Source: a phage. From it: 64,000 nucleotides of DNA. The stretch lies in the sequence record PZ166176.1, one strand, 5' to 3'. The notes beneath the pieces were generated by a model that was given only the letters and a program-made list of their open reading frames with translations, made no database searches and had not been told where the DNA came from. The translations under genes and the position numbers were made by a program. Below are positions 678 through 35,671 of the stretch, piece after piece. Position 1 is the stretch's first letter, and each line of letters begins with the position of its first letter.

Positions 678-723
678 AAAAGAAAAGCCCCCTGAAACAG
701 GAGGCTTTGTTCAGATGCTGGCA

Positions 724-1377
724 CTATACCAGACTTTGTAGGTATTTGTCAAGGGCTTCTTGATCGCCTTGACAAACATAGCAACGGAAGTCTTGAGCCG
801 AAGGTTGTTTATTTTCATCCCAGTCCCAATAAACATTACCCTTATAACGTGAACCAGGAAACTCAAAAGAGGCTGTATGTGTAATGTATCCTGGGCCACC
901 AGTGAAATCACAGAATGAGAATTGGGGGTATGCCGCCTTTACTGCCTCAATAAACCAAGCTTTACGATCTAAAGCTTCATTGATGCTATACGCATGTCTC
1001 TCCATTTCTTCCCACGTTTTCCAGACACTTCTCTCATCAGGAGAAAAGACAAGCCATTCTGGAAGGTATAGAGTGTCATAGTAATCATCATATTCGATCT
1101 CGGAGGCGCACGAAGCTGACTCCTCCAGTTTTGAGTAATCAAAAGCAGAATATACCCACCAACCATCTTCCAGTAACGCTTTGATAGGGACGAAGCCTTT
1201 ATCAGCATATTGATCGAATTGTTTGACACGGTGGCTTGTGCAGTCTTCAAACTCACATTCTAAACGATATGCACCTTTTCGACGAGCCTCAAGACCGTGT
1301 GTACTGAAAATAACAACACTTCCTTCACCATCATTACGATCTACTTGATAAGCAACCACTGGTTTTGAATTTGACAT
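724..1377 (-). CDS. hypothetical protein
   Basis: Track ORF, 217 aa; stop/start abuts next gene. Confidence 0.5.
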   Translation of the reverse strand: MSNSKPVVAYQVDRNDGEGSVVIFSTHGLEARRKGAYRLECEFEDCTSHRVKQFDQYADKGFVPIKALLEDGWWVYSAFDYSKLEESASCASEIEYDDYYDTLYLPEWLVFSPDERSVWKTWEEMERHAYSINEALDRKAWFIEAVKAAYPQFSFCDFTGGPGYITHTASFEFPGSRYKGNVYWDWDENKQPSAQDFRCYVCQGDQEALDKYLQSLV

Positions 1378-2060
1378 TATTTCTCCTTATCTAGAAGATT
1401 GTTAGACAAAAACACTGCACGAGCAAAACCACGTGCGGTTAGTGATCTAAGTTGTTTTGTTTTTGCACTAGCTCCACCTAAGCTTTTCCAACCCCAGAAG
1501 CAGCCTATATGATCTACTGGTTTCTTCACTGGTTGAACAAAACCATTGCCGTGCCAAATACAAGTTTTCTTTGTATACCCATCACGGGTAGGCATTTTAG
1601 GATGAAAGCTTCCTTCCTCTTCAAACAAATACCCACCATACTCATAAGGATCAAAGTAAAAATCGGGTTTACGCCATAAGGTTGAAAGTTTACCTACTGG
1701 GTTCTCAATCATCCAAGGAACATTATATTTGTTACCCAAAGCTTCCACTACACGAATATTAGCTAAAGCTTCATCCAATTCCTCTGTGCTGCGTTCGTGT
1801 TTGCTACCACTACCTGCTAACATAGTGCAAGGTGGAAATCCAAAAATAATATCGGGTTTAGGTATCCCATGATCTTCAGGGTTGAATGTAGAATCTATCC
1901 AGGCATTCACATAGGTTATGTTTGGGTGCTCCATCCTAACCTCGTATTTACCGTGATCCCCTTCATCAGCGTTTACACAAAAACACTTGTGACCTGCTTC
2001 GGCATAACGTAACACCATGATCCCAGATCCGTCAAACATAGACAAAACTGTTTTACTCAT
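1377..2060 (-). CDS. putative SAM-dependent DNA cytosine-C5 methyltransferase-like protein
   Basis: FDGSG (motif I-like), GFPPCT (PC motif IV-like), ENPVG (motif VI-like); start moved to internal ATG (MSKTV) preceded by GGAGGGG; catalytic Gln of PCQ replaced by Thr so function uncertain. Confidence 0.35.
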   Translation of the reverse strand: MSKTVLSMFDGSGIMVLRYAEAGHKCFCVNADEGDHGKYEVRMEHPNITYVNAWIDSTFNPEDHGIPKPDIIFGFPPCTMLAGSGSKHERSTEELDEALANIRVVEALGNKYNVPWMIENPVGKLSTLWRKPDFYFDPYEYGGYLFEEEGSFHPKMPTRDGYTKKTCIWHGNGFVQPVKKPVDHIGCFWGWKSLGGASAKTKQLRSLTARGFARAVFLSNNLLDKEK

Positions 2061-2466
2061 TACCCCTCCATTCAAGACAAGCCATAACTTTACGCCAATC
2101 ACTTTCTGTAAGAAAAATCTCGTTTGCTTTCTTCCACAAATCTAAATCGTGAAGGGTTGGAATACGATATGTTAGTTCACAGAATCTATGCTCTTCTTCT
2201 GTAATATAACCAAAATGCAGAGCCACATCGTGAAACCAACACCAACCATGCATCTCTCGAACAACATGGTCATGTTGAGACATTATTTTATGCCGTAAAC
2301 CTAACCAACAAGGAACAGATACTTTAGTAGTCTTTAATCTGTGATCAACAGTATTAGAGTATTCAATAATAGCTGTCAGTTTCAATCGTGCTTTTTCTAA
2401 ATCCTCATGCGTCACTTTGAAATAACTTTCTGAAAGATATCCACACATATTAATAACCTCCTTCAA
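2053..2466 (-). CDS. hypothetical protein
   Basis: Track ORF, 137 aa. Confidence 0.45.
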   Translation of the reverse strand: MKEVINMCGYLSESYFKVTHEDLEKARLKLTAIIEYSNTVDHRLKTTKVSVPCWLGLRHKIMSQHDHVVREMHGWCWFHDVALHFGYITEEEHRFCELTYRIPTLHDLDLWKKANEIFLTESDWRKVMACLEWRGNE

Positions 2467-3391
2467 AAGGCTTTACTACATGTTGATTAGCTTTAAAACG
2501 TTCAACATAGTCGTTTTCGCCCATGTTTTCATATAGCTTAATAACAACATAAAAGTTTTCCCAAGCATATTCCCTAAACCAACCACTAGTGATGGACGTG
2601 CAGACTTTAGATAAAGCCATTATAAAACTTTGCTTAGGGGTTGGACCTCCGATCTCTCCACCGAAAGGAATTTGTGAACGTTCCAAAGCCAAAACACACG
2701 CTTCTTCATAAACACCTAACAGGCGCACATGTTTTGGTTGAGCAAAAAACTTTTCTTTGCTGGTCATAACTTCACTTCCATCTTTCATATAAGATTTATA
2801 TGCCGGAGCATCCATTACCGCGATTGCTTCATGGATAGAATCATGATCATAAACATACGGAACCTCATCACCTTTAAAAAAGTCTTTACTTTTTACGTTT
2901 AAGTTCGGATGAGAGTAAGTGTATGTTTCTTTCTCACGCAACTCATAAATACTCTTAAGATTTTCTGGGATCTTTGCGCCCAGTGACCGCATGAAATGAA
3001 TATCTTTCATAGTTTTAAAGAAGTGAGGACTATCCTTTTTAAAACGATGACTCATTTTAAGAAGGTAGAGCACATCTAAAGGAGCAACAACATGTCCAGC
3101 GTAAGTTCGACGAACATCATCAGAATCTTCACAATAACTAATCAAAGCTTCTGTGCTATCTCCTTGAGAAGCAATATCGTATTCCAAATGTGCACCAGCT
3201 ATCATTTTGACATGGCCTTTGTTTCCTTTACGTTCTACAAGTTCAACAAACTCATCTTGAGAGAACATTTTTGATAATTCTTCCCACTCTTGTTCTGTAC
3301 ACAGGTAATCTAAATCTACACAAGGGCGATACAAGTCTTTTCCCATATCCATAGCATGAATTTGTAATGCACGGCTACCAATTAACACCAT
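2450..3391 (-). CDS. hypothetical protein (weak nucleotidyltransferase-like GS...DxD pattern)
   Basis: Track ORF 313 aa; N-terminal LIGSRAL...VDLDYL vaguely resembles a pol-beta-type NTase motif but spacing is atypical. Confidence 0.45.
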   Translation of the reverse strand: MVLIGSRALQIHAMDMGKDLYRPCVDLDYLCTEQEWEELSKMFSQDEFVELVERKGNKGHVKMIAGAHLEYDIASQGDSTEALISYCEDSDDVRRTYAGHVVAPLDVLYLLKMSHRFKKDSPHFFKTMKDIHFMRSLGAKIPENLKSIYELREKETYTYSHPNLNVKSKDFFKGDEVPYVYDHDSIHEAIAVMDAPAYKSYMKDGSEVMTSKEKFFAQPKHVRLLGVYEEACVLALERSQIPFGGEIGGPTPKQSFIMALSKVCTSITSGWFREYAWENFYVVIKLYENMGENDYVERFKANQHVVKPFEGGY

Positions 3392-3421
3392 AATATTTCT
3401 CCTCTATTGGTTGATAGGTTA

Positions 3422-3450
3422 AGTTTATCAAGCTTCCAGATTCCTGTCAA
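3422..3450 (-). promoter_or_regulatory. sigma70-like promoter (TTGACA-17-TAAACT) for gene 2450..3391
   Basis: Reverse complement reads TTGACAggaatctggaagcttgaTAAACT immediately after terminator hairpin. Confidence 0.45.
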
Positions 3451-3473
3451 TAAAAAACCCGCCGAAGCGGGTT
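3451..3473 (-). terminator. rho-independent terminator
   Basis: Minus strand: AACCCGCTTCGGCGGGTT hairpin followed by TTTTT. Confidence 0.55.
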
Positions 3474-3481
3474 ATTATTTA

Positions 3482-3754
3482 CTAACACATTGAGGAAGAA
3501 GAGATCCAAACACCTCTTGTGGTTAAACCATTTTCATCCAACTCTACACCATAATCTTCACAAATGAAATCAATATAGTGATCTGCGGCTGGCGTTCCTG
3601 TAGGGTAATAAGTTTCTCCGTTACCGTAGTCACCTATCCAAGCTTGTTCCTGAAACTGTTCACAAAGTTCTTCAATCTCCTTACGAAACTTTCTTTGTGC
3701 TTGTTCCATCTCTTTAACTTTCTTTTTTATCAGCAGTTCGCCTTCAGACTCCAC
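3482..3754 (-). CDS. small protein, member of W-x-SSS-C C-terminal tail paralog family
   Basis: GTG start after AAGGAGAG; C-terminus ...GVWISSSSMC. Confidence 0.5.
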   Translation of the reverse strand: MESEGELLIKKKVKEMEQAQRKFRKEIEELCEQFQEQAWIGDYGNGETYYPTGTPAADHYIDFICEDYGVELDENGLTTRGVWISSSSMC

Positions 3755-3763
3755 AATCTCTCC

Positions 3764-3982
3764 TTAACAGCTACTACTGTGCCAAACGCCTTGAGAATTA
3801 ACGACGAAACCATCATCACCTTCACCATAACAAGAAGAGGATTGCCAATCTTCAAAACAGATTGCGTCATTTTCTAAACTAAGACCAAAACCAGCATCTT
3901 CAGCTTCTTTTGTAAGTTCGTCCACTAAAGCCATAATAGCTTGGGCTTTTTCAGTTAATTCTTCAACATTACGATCACTCAT
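3764..3982 (-). CDS. small protein, W-x-SSS-C tail paralog
   Basis: Start set at internal ATG (MSDRN) overlapping stop of upstream gene; C-terminus ...GVWHSSSC. Confidence 0.5.
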   Translation of the reverse strand: MSDRNVEELTEKAQAIMALVDELTKEAEDAGFGLSLENDAICFEDWQSSSCYGEGDDGFVVNSQGVWHSSSC

Positions 3983-4296
3983 TAGTATTTCTCCTCTGGT
4001 TGGAAAACTGAACGACAAGCCCACATACTAGCTTCTTTTAAATGTTTAATAGCACAACGGATTTGATCAATACGTTCGTATGTAAGATCTAATTCTTTTT
4101 CTGTGCCGTCAAAAGACCCATGATATGCTTCACAATACTCTTCCTCTAAAGCTTTGAAGATTAAACCTAAACGCTCTTCTGCATCTTTAATAGCGTTAAC
4201 CTTGCCAATCTTATCGTCAGTATGCGCCTTATAACCTTTGATATCTTCGATTCCCACTTTACCTCCTATTAACAACTTAAAGAAGATGGATGCCAA
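3982..4296 (-). CDS. hypothetical protein
   Basis: Track ORF 104 aa. Confidence 0.45.
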   Translation of the reverse strand: MASIFFKLLIGGKVGIEDIKGYKAHTDDKIGKVNAIKDAEERLGLIFKALEEEYCEAYHGSFDGTEKELDLTYERIDQIRCAIKHLKEASMWACRSVFQPEEKY

Positions 4297-4466
4297 TTTG
4301 TTCCAGTATTCTCATTTTCATCTTCTGGATCATAATAGCCACCCATCCCATATTCAGGGGAGAAACGGAAACCTTTACCAGTCTCATCTGCTAACTGCTC
4401 TGCTTCCGCTAAAGCCTCATAAGCTGCTTTTACGGCTTCTTCTACTGTTTTAAACTTGGTCGTCAT
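4269..4466 (-). CDS. small protein, W-x-SS-x-SC tail paralog
   Basis: C-terminus ...NWHPSSLSC. Confidence 0.45.
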   Translation of the reverse strand: MTTKFKTVEEAVKAAYEALAEAEQLADETGKGFRFSPEYGMGGYYDPEDENENTGTNWHPSSLSC

Positions 4467-4740
4467 AAAATTTCTCCTCTCCTAAAGACATGTTGACATG
4501 AAATGCACGATATGTAAATTCGTTGTCCGTTGTGTTTGAATAAAACTCAAATTGAACAACACCGTCTTGAGAAGACAGATACATGCCAATTTGAACTGTT
4601 CCTTCTGGTACCAGGTAAGCATACTCTGGACGTAGTGTTACATTGTAAAAATAAAGTTCCCCAACACCCATTTCATCCCAAGCTTCCCAAGCGGTAACGA
4701 AGTTACTTTCAAAACTTGTTACTGATCCGAACTCTGCCAT
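4450..4740 (-). CDS. hypothetical protein
   Basis: Track ORF 96 aa. Confidence 0.45.
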   Translation of the reverse strand: MAEFGSVTSFESNFVTAWEAWDEMGVGELYFYNVTLRPEYAYLVPEGTVQIGMYLSSQDGVVQFEFYSNTTDNEFTYRAFHVNMSLGEEKFYDDQV

Positions 4741-5231
4741 AAAACCTCCTCAATCTTGTAGTTTGACTCCATCTCCAACACATTTCCACGAACGTCTCTC
4801 CGAAGAAAGGCATAAGCTTTATTAGGTATTGTAGACTCATATTTAACCATATCTGGTACAGCAAAAGATACTACTACTCCTGCTGGGCTTCTGTCAAGAG
4901 CCTTATTAATATTTCTAAGGATATCGTTAGCCAAGATTTCTGCCAATTCTCCAAGAACGGTTTCGGTTATATCTTTATATCCCATTAAGTATTTGTTGAT
5001 ATCTTTCATCTCTGTATTGTTCAGAGTATAATCCAAAGGATAGAAATTCAAAGCGGAGTCACTTTTATGTGTCCACATGAAATGCACCCGATCCGAGCAG
5101 AATCGTAACCCTCTTTGAAGAATATCTTCTACAACAGGCAGAATTTCTTTTGTCACATCATTAACCATGTTGTAATCTAAGATTTCTGCCAAGTTTGTTC
5201 TTTGTTCACCACGTTTACGTTTAGGAATCAC
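4719..5231 (-). CDS. hypothetical protein
   Basis: Track ORF 170 aa. Confidence 0.45.
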   Translation of the reverse strand: MIPKRKRGEQRTNLAEILDYNMVNDVTKEILPVVEDILQRGLRFCSDRVHFMWTHKSDSALNFYPLDYTLNNTEMKDINKYLMGYKDITETVLGELAEILANDILRNINKALDRSPAGVVVSFAVPDMVKYESTIPNKAYAFLRRDVRGNVLEMESNYKIEEVLWQSSDQ

Positions 5232-5826
5232 TTGTTATTGCCCTCATTACCAAAGGTCGTAGAAAATCGTAAATCTCTTGTTTTGTTTTCCCACGAATGT
5301 TTAAACAAGGAACATTATTGGCTTTAGCTATCTTCCAAGCCGTAGCTGTTCCACCTTTTGCATCTCCATGTTTATCAGTATTAGCACAAGCCAACAAGAA
5401 ACATGATGGAGCAGGATTCTCCAAATCTCTACCTAACACTTGATGCACATTACGTTGGTGCAATTTTCTAGCACCCTGCTTAAGCTTTTCATAGGCTGGG
5501 TGAACATCTTTGATCCATTGCACAGAAATAGCATAGTTCATTGTATCTGGTTTTGCAAGAACAATAACATCCCCTGGAATCTGATTACCTTTGAAATTTT
5601 CCCAAGGAACATAAATCTCCTTGTTAGTAGGATTTTCAGACTCTTGGACACCTGTTTCAAAAGCAGAATCACTACCCTCTGCCTTCCCAGACCTTAATTT
5701 AAACCCAAGGTTTGAAAGCCATTTCCCTATGCCTACCATCAAAGCCCACTCTTCTTCGGATATGTCTCTACTTCCAACTCCCGTATAGAACAGTTCTGCC
5801 ATAATCACCTCAACAAGTAATTTCAA
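5221..5826 (-). CDS. DprA/Smf-like SLOG-domain (Rossmann-fold nucleotide-binding) protein
   Basis: TGVGSRD...RSGKAEGSDSAFETG matches the GSR...SGxAxGxDxxA signature of DprA/LOG-type SLOG domains. Confidence 0.45.
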   Translation of the reverse strand: MKLLVEVIMAELFYTGVGSRDISEEEWALMVGIGKWLSNLGFKLRSGKAEGSDSAFETGVQESENPTNKEIYVPWENFKGNQIPGDVIVLAKPDTMNYAISVQWIKDVHPAYEKLKQGARKLHQRNVHQVLGRDLENPAPSCFLLACANTDKHGDAKGGTATAWKIAKANNVPCLNIRGKTKQEIYDFLRPLVMRAITSDS

Positions 5827-6118
5827 AAGGTGTATAGGGTTCCGTATTTCTCATGATCCAAGGACTGCTAGGATTGCTCGGATCATAAGGGCCAAAAGGT
5901 TTTATGGTAGGTTGTGTTTCTTTCTTCTGAATCTCTTCAAAAATACGACGAAGTTCAGAATATTCTTGATCCACCATAAGATTCGGTGCATCTGATTCTA
6001 CAGCTTGCAGGTTATCTTCCTTAAGAACAATCTCACGAACAAGATTAACATCTTCTGTTTCTAAGATAACTTCTTTACGGATATTGCCTACACTTTGAAT
6101 AATTGTAATCTTATACAT
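5810..6118 (-). CDS. hypothetical protein
   Basis: Track ORF 102 aa. Confidence 0.45.
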   Translation of the reverse strand: MYKITIIQSVGNIRKEVILETEDVNLVREIVLKEDNLQAVESDAPNLMVDQEYSELRRIFEEIQKKETQPTIKPFGPYDPSNPSSPWIMRNTEPYTPFEITC

Positions 6119-6861
6119 TAATCCTCCTCAAGAGTTGAATAAAATTGAAGACCACCGTCCATATCGAAATAAGCAAATGTTAAGTTATTATTGAACACAG
6201 ATCCAGTATCCATATAAACACGATTCGCATTGATAATAGGTGTTTTTACATAAGAGTGTCCATGAAACACATAATCCACACCCATCACAACAGGAAGTTT
6301 CATTCCCTCTTTAGCACAATCCACCATATCTCTGTCCCACATAAGTGCTTCAGCAAAACGGTTTTCCTGTGTTTTTGTCATCTTCGAAGTGTATTCTGGA
6401 ATATCTGTTACAGGGAGATATTCCAAAGAAGACGGATACCCACCATGAATAAACGCAAGTTTCATGCCTCTGTAGTTAACAATGAGAACAACAGGTAAAT
6501 CTTCTGTCATCATTGCTAAGGCTGTAGCTCCTTCTTCACCACATTCTTCAAGGACCGTATATCCTCCATTTTGATACCAACACTCGAAGTAGCTACGATC
6601 TCCTTCCAGCATACCTTTAATCATCATGTCTTCATGATTTCCACGAATAGCGTAGCGATTGTGTTTACGAGTAAATTCTAAAACACAACGAAAGTTTTGC
6701 TTTCCACGGTCAGTAAGATCTCCTAGAGATACAACCACATCTGTATCTCGGATACCTAACTTTGCCTTTCCTTTTTCATACAAATTATAACAACCGTGTA
6801 GATCTCCAATTATAAAAAGATCTTGATCGCTTTTAACAGTAATTTCTCTGTGTATGATCAC
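6118..6861 (-). CDS. Ser/Thr protein phosphatase (calcineurin-like metallophosphoesterase)
   Basis: GDLHG, GDLTDRG, GNHE and HGH metal-binding motifs in canonical order. Confidence 0.75.
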   Translation of the reverse strand: MIIHREITVKSDQDLFIIGDLHGCYNLYEKGKAKLGIRDTDVVVSLGDLTDRGKQNFRCVLEFTRKHNRYAIRGNHEDMMIKGMLEGDRSYFECWYQNGGYTVLEECGEEGATALAMMTEDLPVVLIVNYRGMKLAFIHGGYPSSLEYLPVTDIPEYTSKMTKTQENRFAEALMWDRDMVDCAKEGMKLPVVMGVDYVFHGHSYVKTPIINANRVYMDTGSVFNNNLTFAYFDMDGGLQFYSTLEED

Positions 6862-35005: not shown

Positions 35006-35080
35006 GGCCCTGTAGCTCAATGGGAGAGCTGTCGGCTCATAACCGATAGGTAGCTGGATCGAAACCAGCCAGGGCCACCA
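35006..35080 (+). tRNA. tRNA with CAT anticodon (resembles tRNA-Ile2 / elongator Met)
   Basis: Hand-folded cloverleaf: acceptor GGCCCTG/CAGGGCC, anticodon loop CTCATAA, T-loop ATCGAAA, encoded CCA. Confidence 0.7.
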
Positions 35081-35082
35081 AC

Positions 35083-35157
35083 GTCTTTATGGTGTAATGG
35101 ATAGCACAGGAGTCTTCTAAACTCTTAGTCAAGGTTCGATTCCTTGTAAAGACACCA
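35083..35157 (+). tRNA. tRNA-Arg (TCT)
   Basis: Acceptor GTCTTTA/TAAAGAC, anticodon loop CTTCTAA, T-arm CAAGG-TTCGATT-CCTTG, CCA. Confidence 0.7.
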
Positions 35158-35158
35158 G

Positions 35159-35342
35159 AACATTTTAACATGAATTAGCTCAAGTGATTTGAACCCACTA
35201 CTGATCATGGTGGCAGAGAATGAGGCAAGTATGTCAGACATTATAAACAAAGGCCACGGTTATATTAGAAGACATAAATGCTCGAAGAGCACCGTTCGTT
35301 GAGAACGGGGGTTGGTGGAGTCACCATTCATGGTAAAATGTT
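35159..35342 (+). ncRNA. structured RNA of about 185 nt following tRNA-Arg
   Basis: 5' AACATTTTAACATGAAT pairs with 3' ATTCATGGTAAAATGTT (one mismatch); no ORF. Confidence 0.35.
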
Positions 35343-35353
35343 TTAAAAAACTA

Positions 35354-35384
35354 TTGACAACTAACATTATTTTATGTTAGATTA
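35354..35384 (+). promoter_or_regulatory. sigma70-like promoter (ctaTTGACAa ... TGtTAGATT)
   Basis: TTGACA and extended -10-like element upstream of tRNA-Ser. Confidence 0.45.
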
Positions 35385-35391
35385 TAAGTAT

Positions 35392-35482
35392 GGAAGGGCA
35401 AATCGACGTGGCGACGAAAACGGTCTTGAAAACCGCCGAGCTTGAAAGAGCCTTGGGAGTTCGACTCTCCCTCCTTCCGCCA
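35392..35482 (+). tRNA. tRNA-Ser (TGA), long variable arm
   Basis: Acceptor GGAAGGG/TCCTTCC, anticodon loop CTTGAAA, long variable arm, T-arm GGGAG-TTCGACT-CTCCC, G73-CCA; D-arm atypical. Confidence 0.55.
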
Positions 35483-35486
35483 GATT

Positions 35487-35572
35487 GGTAGATTGGTGAA
35501 ATGGTAGCCACGACAGTTTGCTAAACTGTAGTCGGAAACGGCGTGTAGGTTCGAGTCCTACATCTACCGCCA
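35487..35572 (+). tRNA. tRNA-Ser (GCT), long variable arm
   Basis: Acceptor GGTAGAT/ATCTACC, anticodon stem ACAGT/ACTGT loop TTGCTAA, variable arm AGTCGGAAACGGCGT, G73-CCA. Confidence 0.7.
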
Positions 35573-35578
35573 AATTAA

Positions 35579-35664
35579 GATGAGTTGGCTGAATGGTTTA
35601 AGCGGCGGACTGTTAATCCGTGTTCGAAAGAACGATATAGGTTCAAATCCTATACTCATCGCCA
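35579..35664 (+). tRNA. class II (long variable arm) tRNA with GTT (Asn) anticodon; identity ambiguous
   Basis: Acceptor GATGAGT/ACTCATC (7 bp), anticodon stem GCGGA/TCCGT loop CTGTTAA, variable arm GTTCGAAAGAACGAT with GTTC/GAAC stem, T-arm ATAGG-TTCAAAT-CCTAT, G73-CCA. Confidence 0.55.
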
Positions 35665-35671
35665 GAATTAT

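Follow-up and report, generated by a model that had tools for sequence, protein, structure and literature searches.

Cys-tailed small proteins of a phage and the predicted nucleotidyltransferase gene linked to them

Why do three small neighbouring phage genes end in nearly the same residues, and with which partner might their products act? In the 64,000 nucleotides of phage DNA analysed here (sequence record PZ166176.1; hereafter the window), an earlier note made from the sequence alone had described these genes as a tandem family sharing a C-terminal tail of Trp, several Ser and a final Cys. We found by sequence comparison that the three, called A, B and C below, are ancient paralogues and belong to a large family of small and very acidic alpha/beta proteins that is restricted to phages. 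Judging from gene order in many phages, their array is very probably coupled in function to a downstream gene encoding a predicted Pol-beta-fold nucleotidyltransferase with the domains DUF7277 and DUF7275 (hereafter the enzyme). This partner had escaped the earlier note, as had an Acb2 gene between B and C and an internal copy of the tail motif in B.

The Cys-tailed family

The three open reading frames (ORFs) lie on the minus strand at the positions given in the earlier note (Table 1) and carry the tails it listed: RGVWISSSSMC in A, QGVWHSSSC in B and TNWHPSSLSC in C, each followed by a stop codon. Their common pattern is W-x(1-2)-SS-x(0-2)-Cys-stop. Among 1005 stop-to-stop segments from the six frames of the whole window, this pattern matched exactly A, B and C, and 2000 residue shuffles gave by chance a mean of 0.069 such tail ORFs with a maximum of 2. 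A search with the family hidden Markov model (HMM) found no further member in the 64-kb window.

We found no significant pairwise BLAST match among A, B and C. Their N-terminal parts, which the earlier note described as different, are not unrelated, however, since other comparisons link them. All three match PHROG 899 (function not assigned; E = 5.1e-14 for A, 1.4e-5 for B and 1.2e-12 for C), aligning to the C-terminal positions 148-221 of this 221-position profile, and hhalign matched a B-type orthologue profile to the A/M-type one across 60 columns (probability 93%, E = 2.8e-7). These matches bear out the proposal that the genes are paralogues. A is 42-57% identical in BLASTP local alignments to homologues from T4-like phages, for example Entb_45 gp194 and PEi20 gp141, and the subtypes A, B and M (the type of C) all occur in T4-like phages in another order. 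Hence, the A, B and M paralogues appear to be old and maintained, rather than recent duplicates. Scans of Pfam, NCBIfam and PADLOC gave no meaningful match for A, B or C, and a profile search of PDB chains gave weak matches to helical proteins only (E >= 0.07; AcrIIC4 and designed helical bundles among them), which we judged to be chance.

The alignment, HMM building and search of related phages that the earlier note had called for revealed a large family, whose three subtypes recur in distant phages. With an alignment of 35 sequences, hmmsearch against 1.84 billion cluster representatives gave 973 family clusters at 50% identity with E <= 1e-3 and 352 with E <= 1e-10. Cys is the last residue in 140/144 new top representatives and in 376/388 distinct members sampled. 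Among these 376, Trp stands at -8 in 310 and at -6 in 54 (the B-type), Ser stands at -5 in 320 and at -4 in 325, and 170 have no other Cys. Members average 90 residues and a net charge of -8, and the long ones carry heterogeneous N-terminal extensions. The consensus runs from an amphipathic helix ending in LADExG through an F-x-F strand, a YG(M)GG(T)Y-x-P loop and a Trp/Ser-rich acidic linker to G-W-x-S-S-x-x-C. The family was defined here by the C-terminal pattern W-x-[SPA]-S-S-x-x-C or W-x-S-S-S-C ending in Cys, which A, B and C all show.

The codons of the tail were compared in 100 distinct tails of the W(-8) type, out of 145 distinct tails sampled. Both TCN and AGY codons are used for the two invariant serines (about 22-25% AGY), both TGC and TGT encode the Cys, and each of the three stop codons is represented. 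Hence, the tail is conserved at the protein level. The earlier note had named ribosome-binding sites overlapping the tail codons as the observation that would undo its proposal; in the window, the binding sites of the downstream genes are located after the stop codons. The ORFs are short and their pairwise BLAST matches insignificant, as would be expected if they were not genes or if the tails were alike at the DNA level through an overlapping ribosome-binding site or a repeat. The mixed Ser and Cys codons, the position of the binding sites, the PHROG 899 matches and the size of the Cys-terminal family refute this explanation, which can be virtually dismissed.

The sequences support the tail as the most conserved element of the family, selected at the protein level. 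The suggestion that the proteins diversify around a C-terminal motif is therefore sound as regards the tail, but the tail is not the sole conserved part, since other conserved elements exist. Nothing was found in support of a targeting role for it.

The layout of C is helix, GFRF, YGMGGYYDP, acidic linker and NWHPSSLSC-stop (net charge -8), and that of A is helix, GDYGNGETYYP and, further on, GVWISSSSMC-stop (net charge -10). B has helix, GFGLSL, an internal FEDWQSSSC-YGEG and GVWHSSSC-stop with Trp at -6 (net charge -13); its second, internal copy of the motif is thus EDWQSSSC followed by YGEG. The AlphaFold2 (AF2) model of C, with a predicted local distance difference test score (pLDDT) of 83, has a helix at residues 8-29 and a small sheet, with W58-P60 in a strand. 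The region before the tail, described earlier as acidic and helical, is acidic but not helical in this model: the helix is N-terminal, and the stretch just before the tail is Gly/Tyr-rich. In the model, the sole part that resembles an exposed terminal element is SS-x-x-C.

Linkage of the array to the enzyme gene

Arrays of this family followed by the enzyme gene are found in several kinds of phage. Five tandem members precede it in the T4-like phage VR7, three in E. coli O157 typing phage 3, three in Pseudomonas phage KIL4 and two in a 371-kb jumbo-phage contig, and the module is present in Straboviridae, Stephanstirmvirinae (Phapecoctavirus), Flaumdravirus and jumbo phages.

Using the enzyme as bait, we collected 80 IMG/VR loci and counted the family genes on the same strand at E <= 1e-3. 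We found one to six such genes in 66/80 loci and, in 65 of these 66, they lie upstream of the enzyme gene, with one copy in 14 loci, two in 22, three in 12, four in 2 and five in 15. The last family stop is less than 1 kb from the enzyme start in 64/65 loci and less than 100 nt from it in 23/65; in the window, the enzyme gene starts 90 nt after the stop of A. Upstream of the enzyme gene in eight further loci are divergent ORFs with W.SS..C at their end, which brings the loci with the family to 74/80, and about 5/80 truly have no family member.

Using the family as bait, through a DNA pattern encoding YGMGGTY, we obtained 73 loci, 26 of them chance matches. The enzyme gene lies downstream on the same strand in 32/32 loci that have a true family ORF and enough downstream sequence, and the family without the enzyme was seen in none of these 32. 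The dependence is not symmetric: loci with the enzyme alone exist, whereas no family gene was seen apart from the enzyme.

The other neighbours in the 80 loci are Acb2 (25/80, at 5-7.6 kb), Metallophos (20/80), Rnl1 (12/80, within 8 kb) and PNKP (10/80). These four, a DprA-like gene and the flanking hypothetical genes were considered as partners of the module and rejected, their linkage being weak or variable. In one jumbo-phage contig (L004), the module is preceded at about 4-6 kb by genes for a T4-type RNA ligase 1 and PNKP (689-3478), a hint of an RNA-repair neighbourhood there; Rnl1 or PNKP is near in only 10-12 of the 80 loci.

The gene order in these loci makes a functional coupling of array and enzyme very probable. 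Alternatively, the small proteins could be independent host-directed effectors, acidic mimics of nucleic acid or inhibitors of host defence or nucleic-acid-binding proteins, that share with the enzyme only a pathway, such as counter-defence against RNA damage, or a mobile cassette; their terminal Cys would then serve in oligomerisation or metal binding. Their strong negative charge (-8 to -13 in the window) would suit such a role, and so would the operon that they share with the Acb2 sponge, in which stop and start codons overlap. In T4-like phages the array sits in a hyperplastic accessory region between the e.2 and e.3 homologues, some phages have Rnl1/PNKP or polynucleotide kinase genes near the enzyme, and a member with a single Cys could form a Cys-based site only between molecules. 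These observations leave unexplained, however, why the array is linked near-obligately and adjacently to one enzyme across unrelated backbones while the other neighbours vary, and the small protein appears to share no fold with known DNA mimics, among which are the anti-restriction proteins Ocr, ArdA and Arn, or with any other PDB entry. We consider independent effectors rather unlikely.

The enzyme and the tails

The structural model of the enzyme (pLDDT 90) has a MenT-like bi-lobed Pol-beta nucleotidyltransferase fold in which the catalytic carboxylates are present. Its closest structural match is MenT1, followed by TglT and MenT4, and ANT(2'') and LnuA are further neighbours. In 30 homologues, 51-81% identical to the window enzyme, G5-S6, D26-x-D28, E70, K112 and D130 are invariant, as are five His (115, 123, 161, 183 and 187) that accompany a DHDxIHE motif in the helical C-terminal DUF7275 domain. 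The latter set (residues 112-190) suggests a metal centre; no HD-domain model matches this domain. Pfam scans of the window enzyme and the 30 homologues found DUF7275 and DUF7277 only, with no match to DUF1814/AbiEii (PF08843), RlaP (PF10127) or NTP_transf_2. No fusion to a small-protein domain was found among the long homologues.

Enzymes from different phage families are 45-51% identical. We found more than 2200 relatives in metagenomes and 735 phage records, and only 2 loci in bacterial genomes searched with one genome for each of 185,579 species. Hence, the module is effectively restricted to phages. Distant DUF7275 relatives of about 250 residues occur in Streptomyces phage BillNye (L160, 2854-3600) and in the KVP40-like Vibrio phage V09 (L161, 2839-3600). 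Both retain the G-S...D-x-D motif and neither has a Cys-tailed neighbour near it; the BillNye relative has a polynucleotide kinase gene about 2 kb upstream of it.

The resemblance to MenT1 raises the question of whether the small proteins are antitoxin-like inhibitors, which would neutralise or time a potentially toxic, MenT-like tRNA nucleotidyltransferase by blocking its active site. MenA1 (68 residues, helix-loop-helix), encoded upstream of MenT1, blocks the electropositive active-site cavity of its partner (PMC10435456). MenA1-MenT1 of M. tuberculosis, AbiEi/AbiEii and TakA/TglT likewise have a small helical protein encoded directly upstream of a bi-lobed Pol-beta nucleotidyltransferase, and the small proteins of the window have a long N-terminal helix. 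The D-x-D ... K ... D series of the window enzyme parallels the residues T39, D41, K137 and D152 of MenT1 (PMC10435456), a comparison of patterns made without residue-by-residue alignment. The architecture thus echoes MenAT1, but the sequence features that define MenAT1 are not found here.

The DUF1814/PF08843 signature of the MenAT and AbiE toxins is absent from the enzyme, PADLOC gave no match, and the small proteins show no relation to the known antitoxins (MenA1, COG5340/AbiEi) in PDB, Pfam, NCBIfam and PADLOC searches, the PDB-wide profile search having returned only the chance matches to helical proteins. MenAT is bacterial and has one antitoxin, whereas the present module belongs to phages and has up to six divergent paralogues per enzyme, which would be unexpected of an antidote, and the invariant W-x-SS-x-x-C tail has no counterpart there. 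The enzyme can also occur alone, the reverse never being seen, and in two phages a terminator separates the genes. It is itself acidic (mean net charge -8.6), which leaves no obvious electrostatic match with an acidic inhibitor; electrostatic complementarity between the small proteins and the enzyme was rejected for the same reason. Antitoxin-like inhibition is unlikely on this evidence.

We tentatively favour the reading that the small proteins are clients of the enzyme, engaged by it through the tail. The array and the enzyme would then form a two-component module, in which the tail, with its Ser-Ser hydroxyls and its terminal thiol and carboxylate, enters the conserved catalytic or metal cleft. 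The tail would most likely be the acceptor and become nucleotidylylated, and the fast-diverging bodies of the one to six paralogues would address a different host target per copy. The module may be expressed alongside early counter-defence genes; in the window, it shares an operon with Acb2. The asymmetric dependence suits clients in need of the enzyme better than it suits an antidote on which the enzyme depends, and a slowly changing enzyme beside fast-changing paralogues that keep a helix/loop scaffold and the tail is the pattern expected if the enzyme recognises the tail. Hence, the client model is favoured because it would explain the number of paralogues, the pattern of conservation and the asymmetric dependence. 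Nucleotidylylation is proposed because the structural neighbours ANT(2''), LnuA and MenT (the last at a 3'-OH) transfer a nucleoside monophosphate to hydroxyl groups.

Pol-beta-fold enzymes that nucleotidylylate a hydroxyl on a specific partner protein are known, namely MntA-HepT (a type VII toxin-antitoxin system), GlnE, GlnD and DrrA. The likeness lies in the possible acceptor residues, since the present family keeps an invariant Tyr as well as Ser-Ser; these enzymes, however, modify Tyr, not a Ser/Cys tail, and none is a sequence match or a top-ranking structural match to the window enzyme. RlaP (PF10127) is an RNA-ligase-associated Pol-beta nucleotidyltransferase of phages (PMC7824862). 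The window-type enzyme is likewise borne by phages in accessory regions, and in the jumbo-phage contig described above it lies about 4-6 kb from Rnl1/PNKP. No small Cys-tailed partner has been described for RlaP, though, and we considered and rejected an identification of the enzyme with it, there being no PF10127 match and Rnl1 or PNKP being near so few of the loci.

Several points weigh against the client reading. At the sequence level, no characterised nucleotidyltransferase family matches the enzyme, and its nucleotidyltransferase activity is a prediction from its model and conserved residues. We infer the binding or modification of the small proteins by the enzyme, and with it physical interaction, docking of the tail in the active site, covalent modification and a host or defence target. 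The family-baited sample consists of M-type members only. Linkage could mean a common pathway without physical contact, and in both the window and KIL4 a terminator and a promoter intervene between the array and the enzyme gene, so that their co-expression need not be stoichiometric. In the model of the small protein, Trp is within a beta-strand of the small fold and not in a free tail, and confidence is only moderate for the five residues at the end (pLDDT about 60); hence, exposure of the tail is an assumption.

A more specific form of the client reading is a phage-specific system for tail modification. A MenT/ANT-like enzyme would nucleotidylylate the Ser-Ser-x-x-Cys C-terminus of a diversifying array or convert it further, which could mean, for example, elimination and thioether closure or the capture of a metal, and the modified tail would be a warhead with which each paralogue inhibits a different host enzyme or defence system. 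We regard this form as quite unlikely. Related to it is the idea that the proteins are precursors akin to ribosomally synthesized and post-translationally modified peptides, with SS-x-x-C dehydrated and cyclised to a lanthionine-type thioether, or otherwise processed, after activation of Ser by the nucleotidyltransferase. A spacing of Ser(i)...Cys(i+3/4) is typical of lanthionine rings, Ser-Ser and the terminal Cys are invariant, and several tandem genes resembling those of precursors stand beside one enzyme. No homologue of LanB, LanM, LanKC, a cyclase, a protease or an exporter was found among the neighbours scanned, however, and the proteins are predicted to be folded domains conserved over the whole scaffold, not leader-plus-core peptides. 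To our knowledge, dehydration driven by nucleotidylylation has no precedent. Such precursors are very unlikely.

Pfam, PHROGs, NCBIfam, PADLOC, PDB and the searchable literature describe no function for either part. Should array and enzyme be physically coupled, they would make up a two-gene module, so far unrecognised, that is very widespread among large virulent phages (T4-like, phAPEC8-like, Felix-like Pseudomonas and jumbo phages). Such a module would provide hundreds of small genes annotated as 'hypothetical', as well as Pfam DUF7275 and DUF7277, with a role, and the enzyme would be the first phage Pol-beta nucleotidyltransferase to work with a protein-partner family defined by a terminal cysteine. 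Covalent modification of the tail, if true, would be categorically new. Its place among early counter-defence genes, in the window with Acb2 in its midst, makes the module a good candidate for a new mechanism of anti-defence or host takeover. Even if the coupling is merely genetic, the invariant terminal Cys is an unusual protein feature that lacks an explanation.

Setting of the array in the window

Positions 2400-6200 of the window are 99.7% identical to Escherichia phage vB_EcoM-Ro121c4YLVW (Phapecoctavirus, Stephanstirmvirinae) and are mostly covered by 65 phage records. In the genome of this phage, all genes of the region lie on the strand that corresponds to the minus strand of the window. 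The order of transcription is a 96-residue ORF, C, the Acb2 homologue, B, A and a strong terminator-like hairpin (Table 1).

Table 1. Features of the array and its surroundings (positions in the window)
Feature	Position	Strand	Evidence or description
C, family member, 65 residues, M-type	4269..4466	-	ORF, PHROG 899, AF2 model
Acb2/Vs.4 homologue, 91 residues, GTG start	3982..4258	-	PF24729, 7uq2
B, family member, 72 residues, B-type	3764..3982	-	ORF, PHROG 899, hhalign
A, family member, 90 residues from GTG 3754, A-type	3482..3754	-	ORF, PHROG 899, BLASTP
Intrinsic-terminator-like hairpin, AACCCGC-TTCG-GCGGGTT then TTTTTAT	3456..3473	-	Directly 3' of the A stop
Sigma-70-like promoter, TTGACA, 17-nt spacer with TG, TAAACT	3422..3450	-	Consensus match only
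Partner gene (the enzyme), DUF7277 + DUF7275, 313 residues	2450..3391	-	Predicted Pol-beta-fold nucleotidyltransferase

The gene between C and B encodes, by sequence, a clear homologue of the T4 Vs.4/Acb2 sponge, which binds cyclic oligonucleotides and acts against the cyclic oligonucleotide-based antiphage signaling system (CBASS). It matches PF24729, the Acb2/Tad1 hairpin, at E = 1.3e-16 (61 bits against a cut-off of 27) and the T4 Vs.4 structure 7uq2 over its full length at E = 2e-28. Its GTG start follows AGGAGG, its stop overlaps the ATG of B (TAATG), and it is unannotated in the closest GenBank/RefSeq records (MH051333 and NC_052654). The likeness to Acb2/Vs.4 and Tad1 is confined to this embedded gene, the Cys-tailed family having no sequence or fold similarity to the sponges, and the adjacency of Acb2 to the array is specific to Phapecoctavirus.

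The same two records begin A at ATG 3709, which gives 75 residues. We found that the 15 residues upstream of this ATG are conserved in homologues and that GTG 3754 is preceded by an AGGAG site. Hence, A most likely starts at GTG 3754 and has the 90-residue form.

The T4 internal proteins IPI, IPII and IPIII are also tandem, fast-diverging small proteins with one short conserved terminal motif, encoded in hyperplastic regions of T4-like genomes. Their motif, however, stands at the N-terminus (MKTYQEFI...), targets the proteins to the capsid and is cleaved off by the prohead protease, whereas the proteins of the window have no MKTYQEFI-like start (MESEGELL, MSDRNVEE, MTTKFKTV) and share a C-terminal motif and a common fold instead. 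In a T4-like IMG/VR contig without an array upstream of its enzyme gene (L054), a nearby ORF (5173-5481) begins with MKTYQEFINE and so resembles the T4 capsid-targeting sequence.

Elsewhere in the window, a 102-residue ORF (5810-6118, minus strand) is likewise Cys-terminal (...PFEITC); it matches PHROG 15301 and, giving no match to the family HMM, is not a member. Ten tRNA genes (Met, Arg, Ser, Asn, Thr, Gly, Gln, Pro, Ile and Met) lie at 35006-36710 on the plus strand; proximity of the module to tRNA genes was considered and rejected, since this cluster is about 31 kb away.

The promoter-like site between A and the enzyme gene sits upstream of the latter and overlaps the T-tail of the terminator hairpin. 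The overlap is with its -35 element (3422-3473 for the two together), which recalls the promoter-terminator 'PeSL' cassettes. Such cassettes are reportedly mediators of module shuffling in T4-like phages. Pseudomonas phage KIL4 is annotated with the same arrangement of terminator and promoter 3' of its array.

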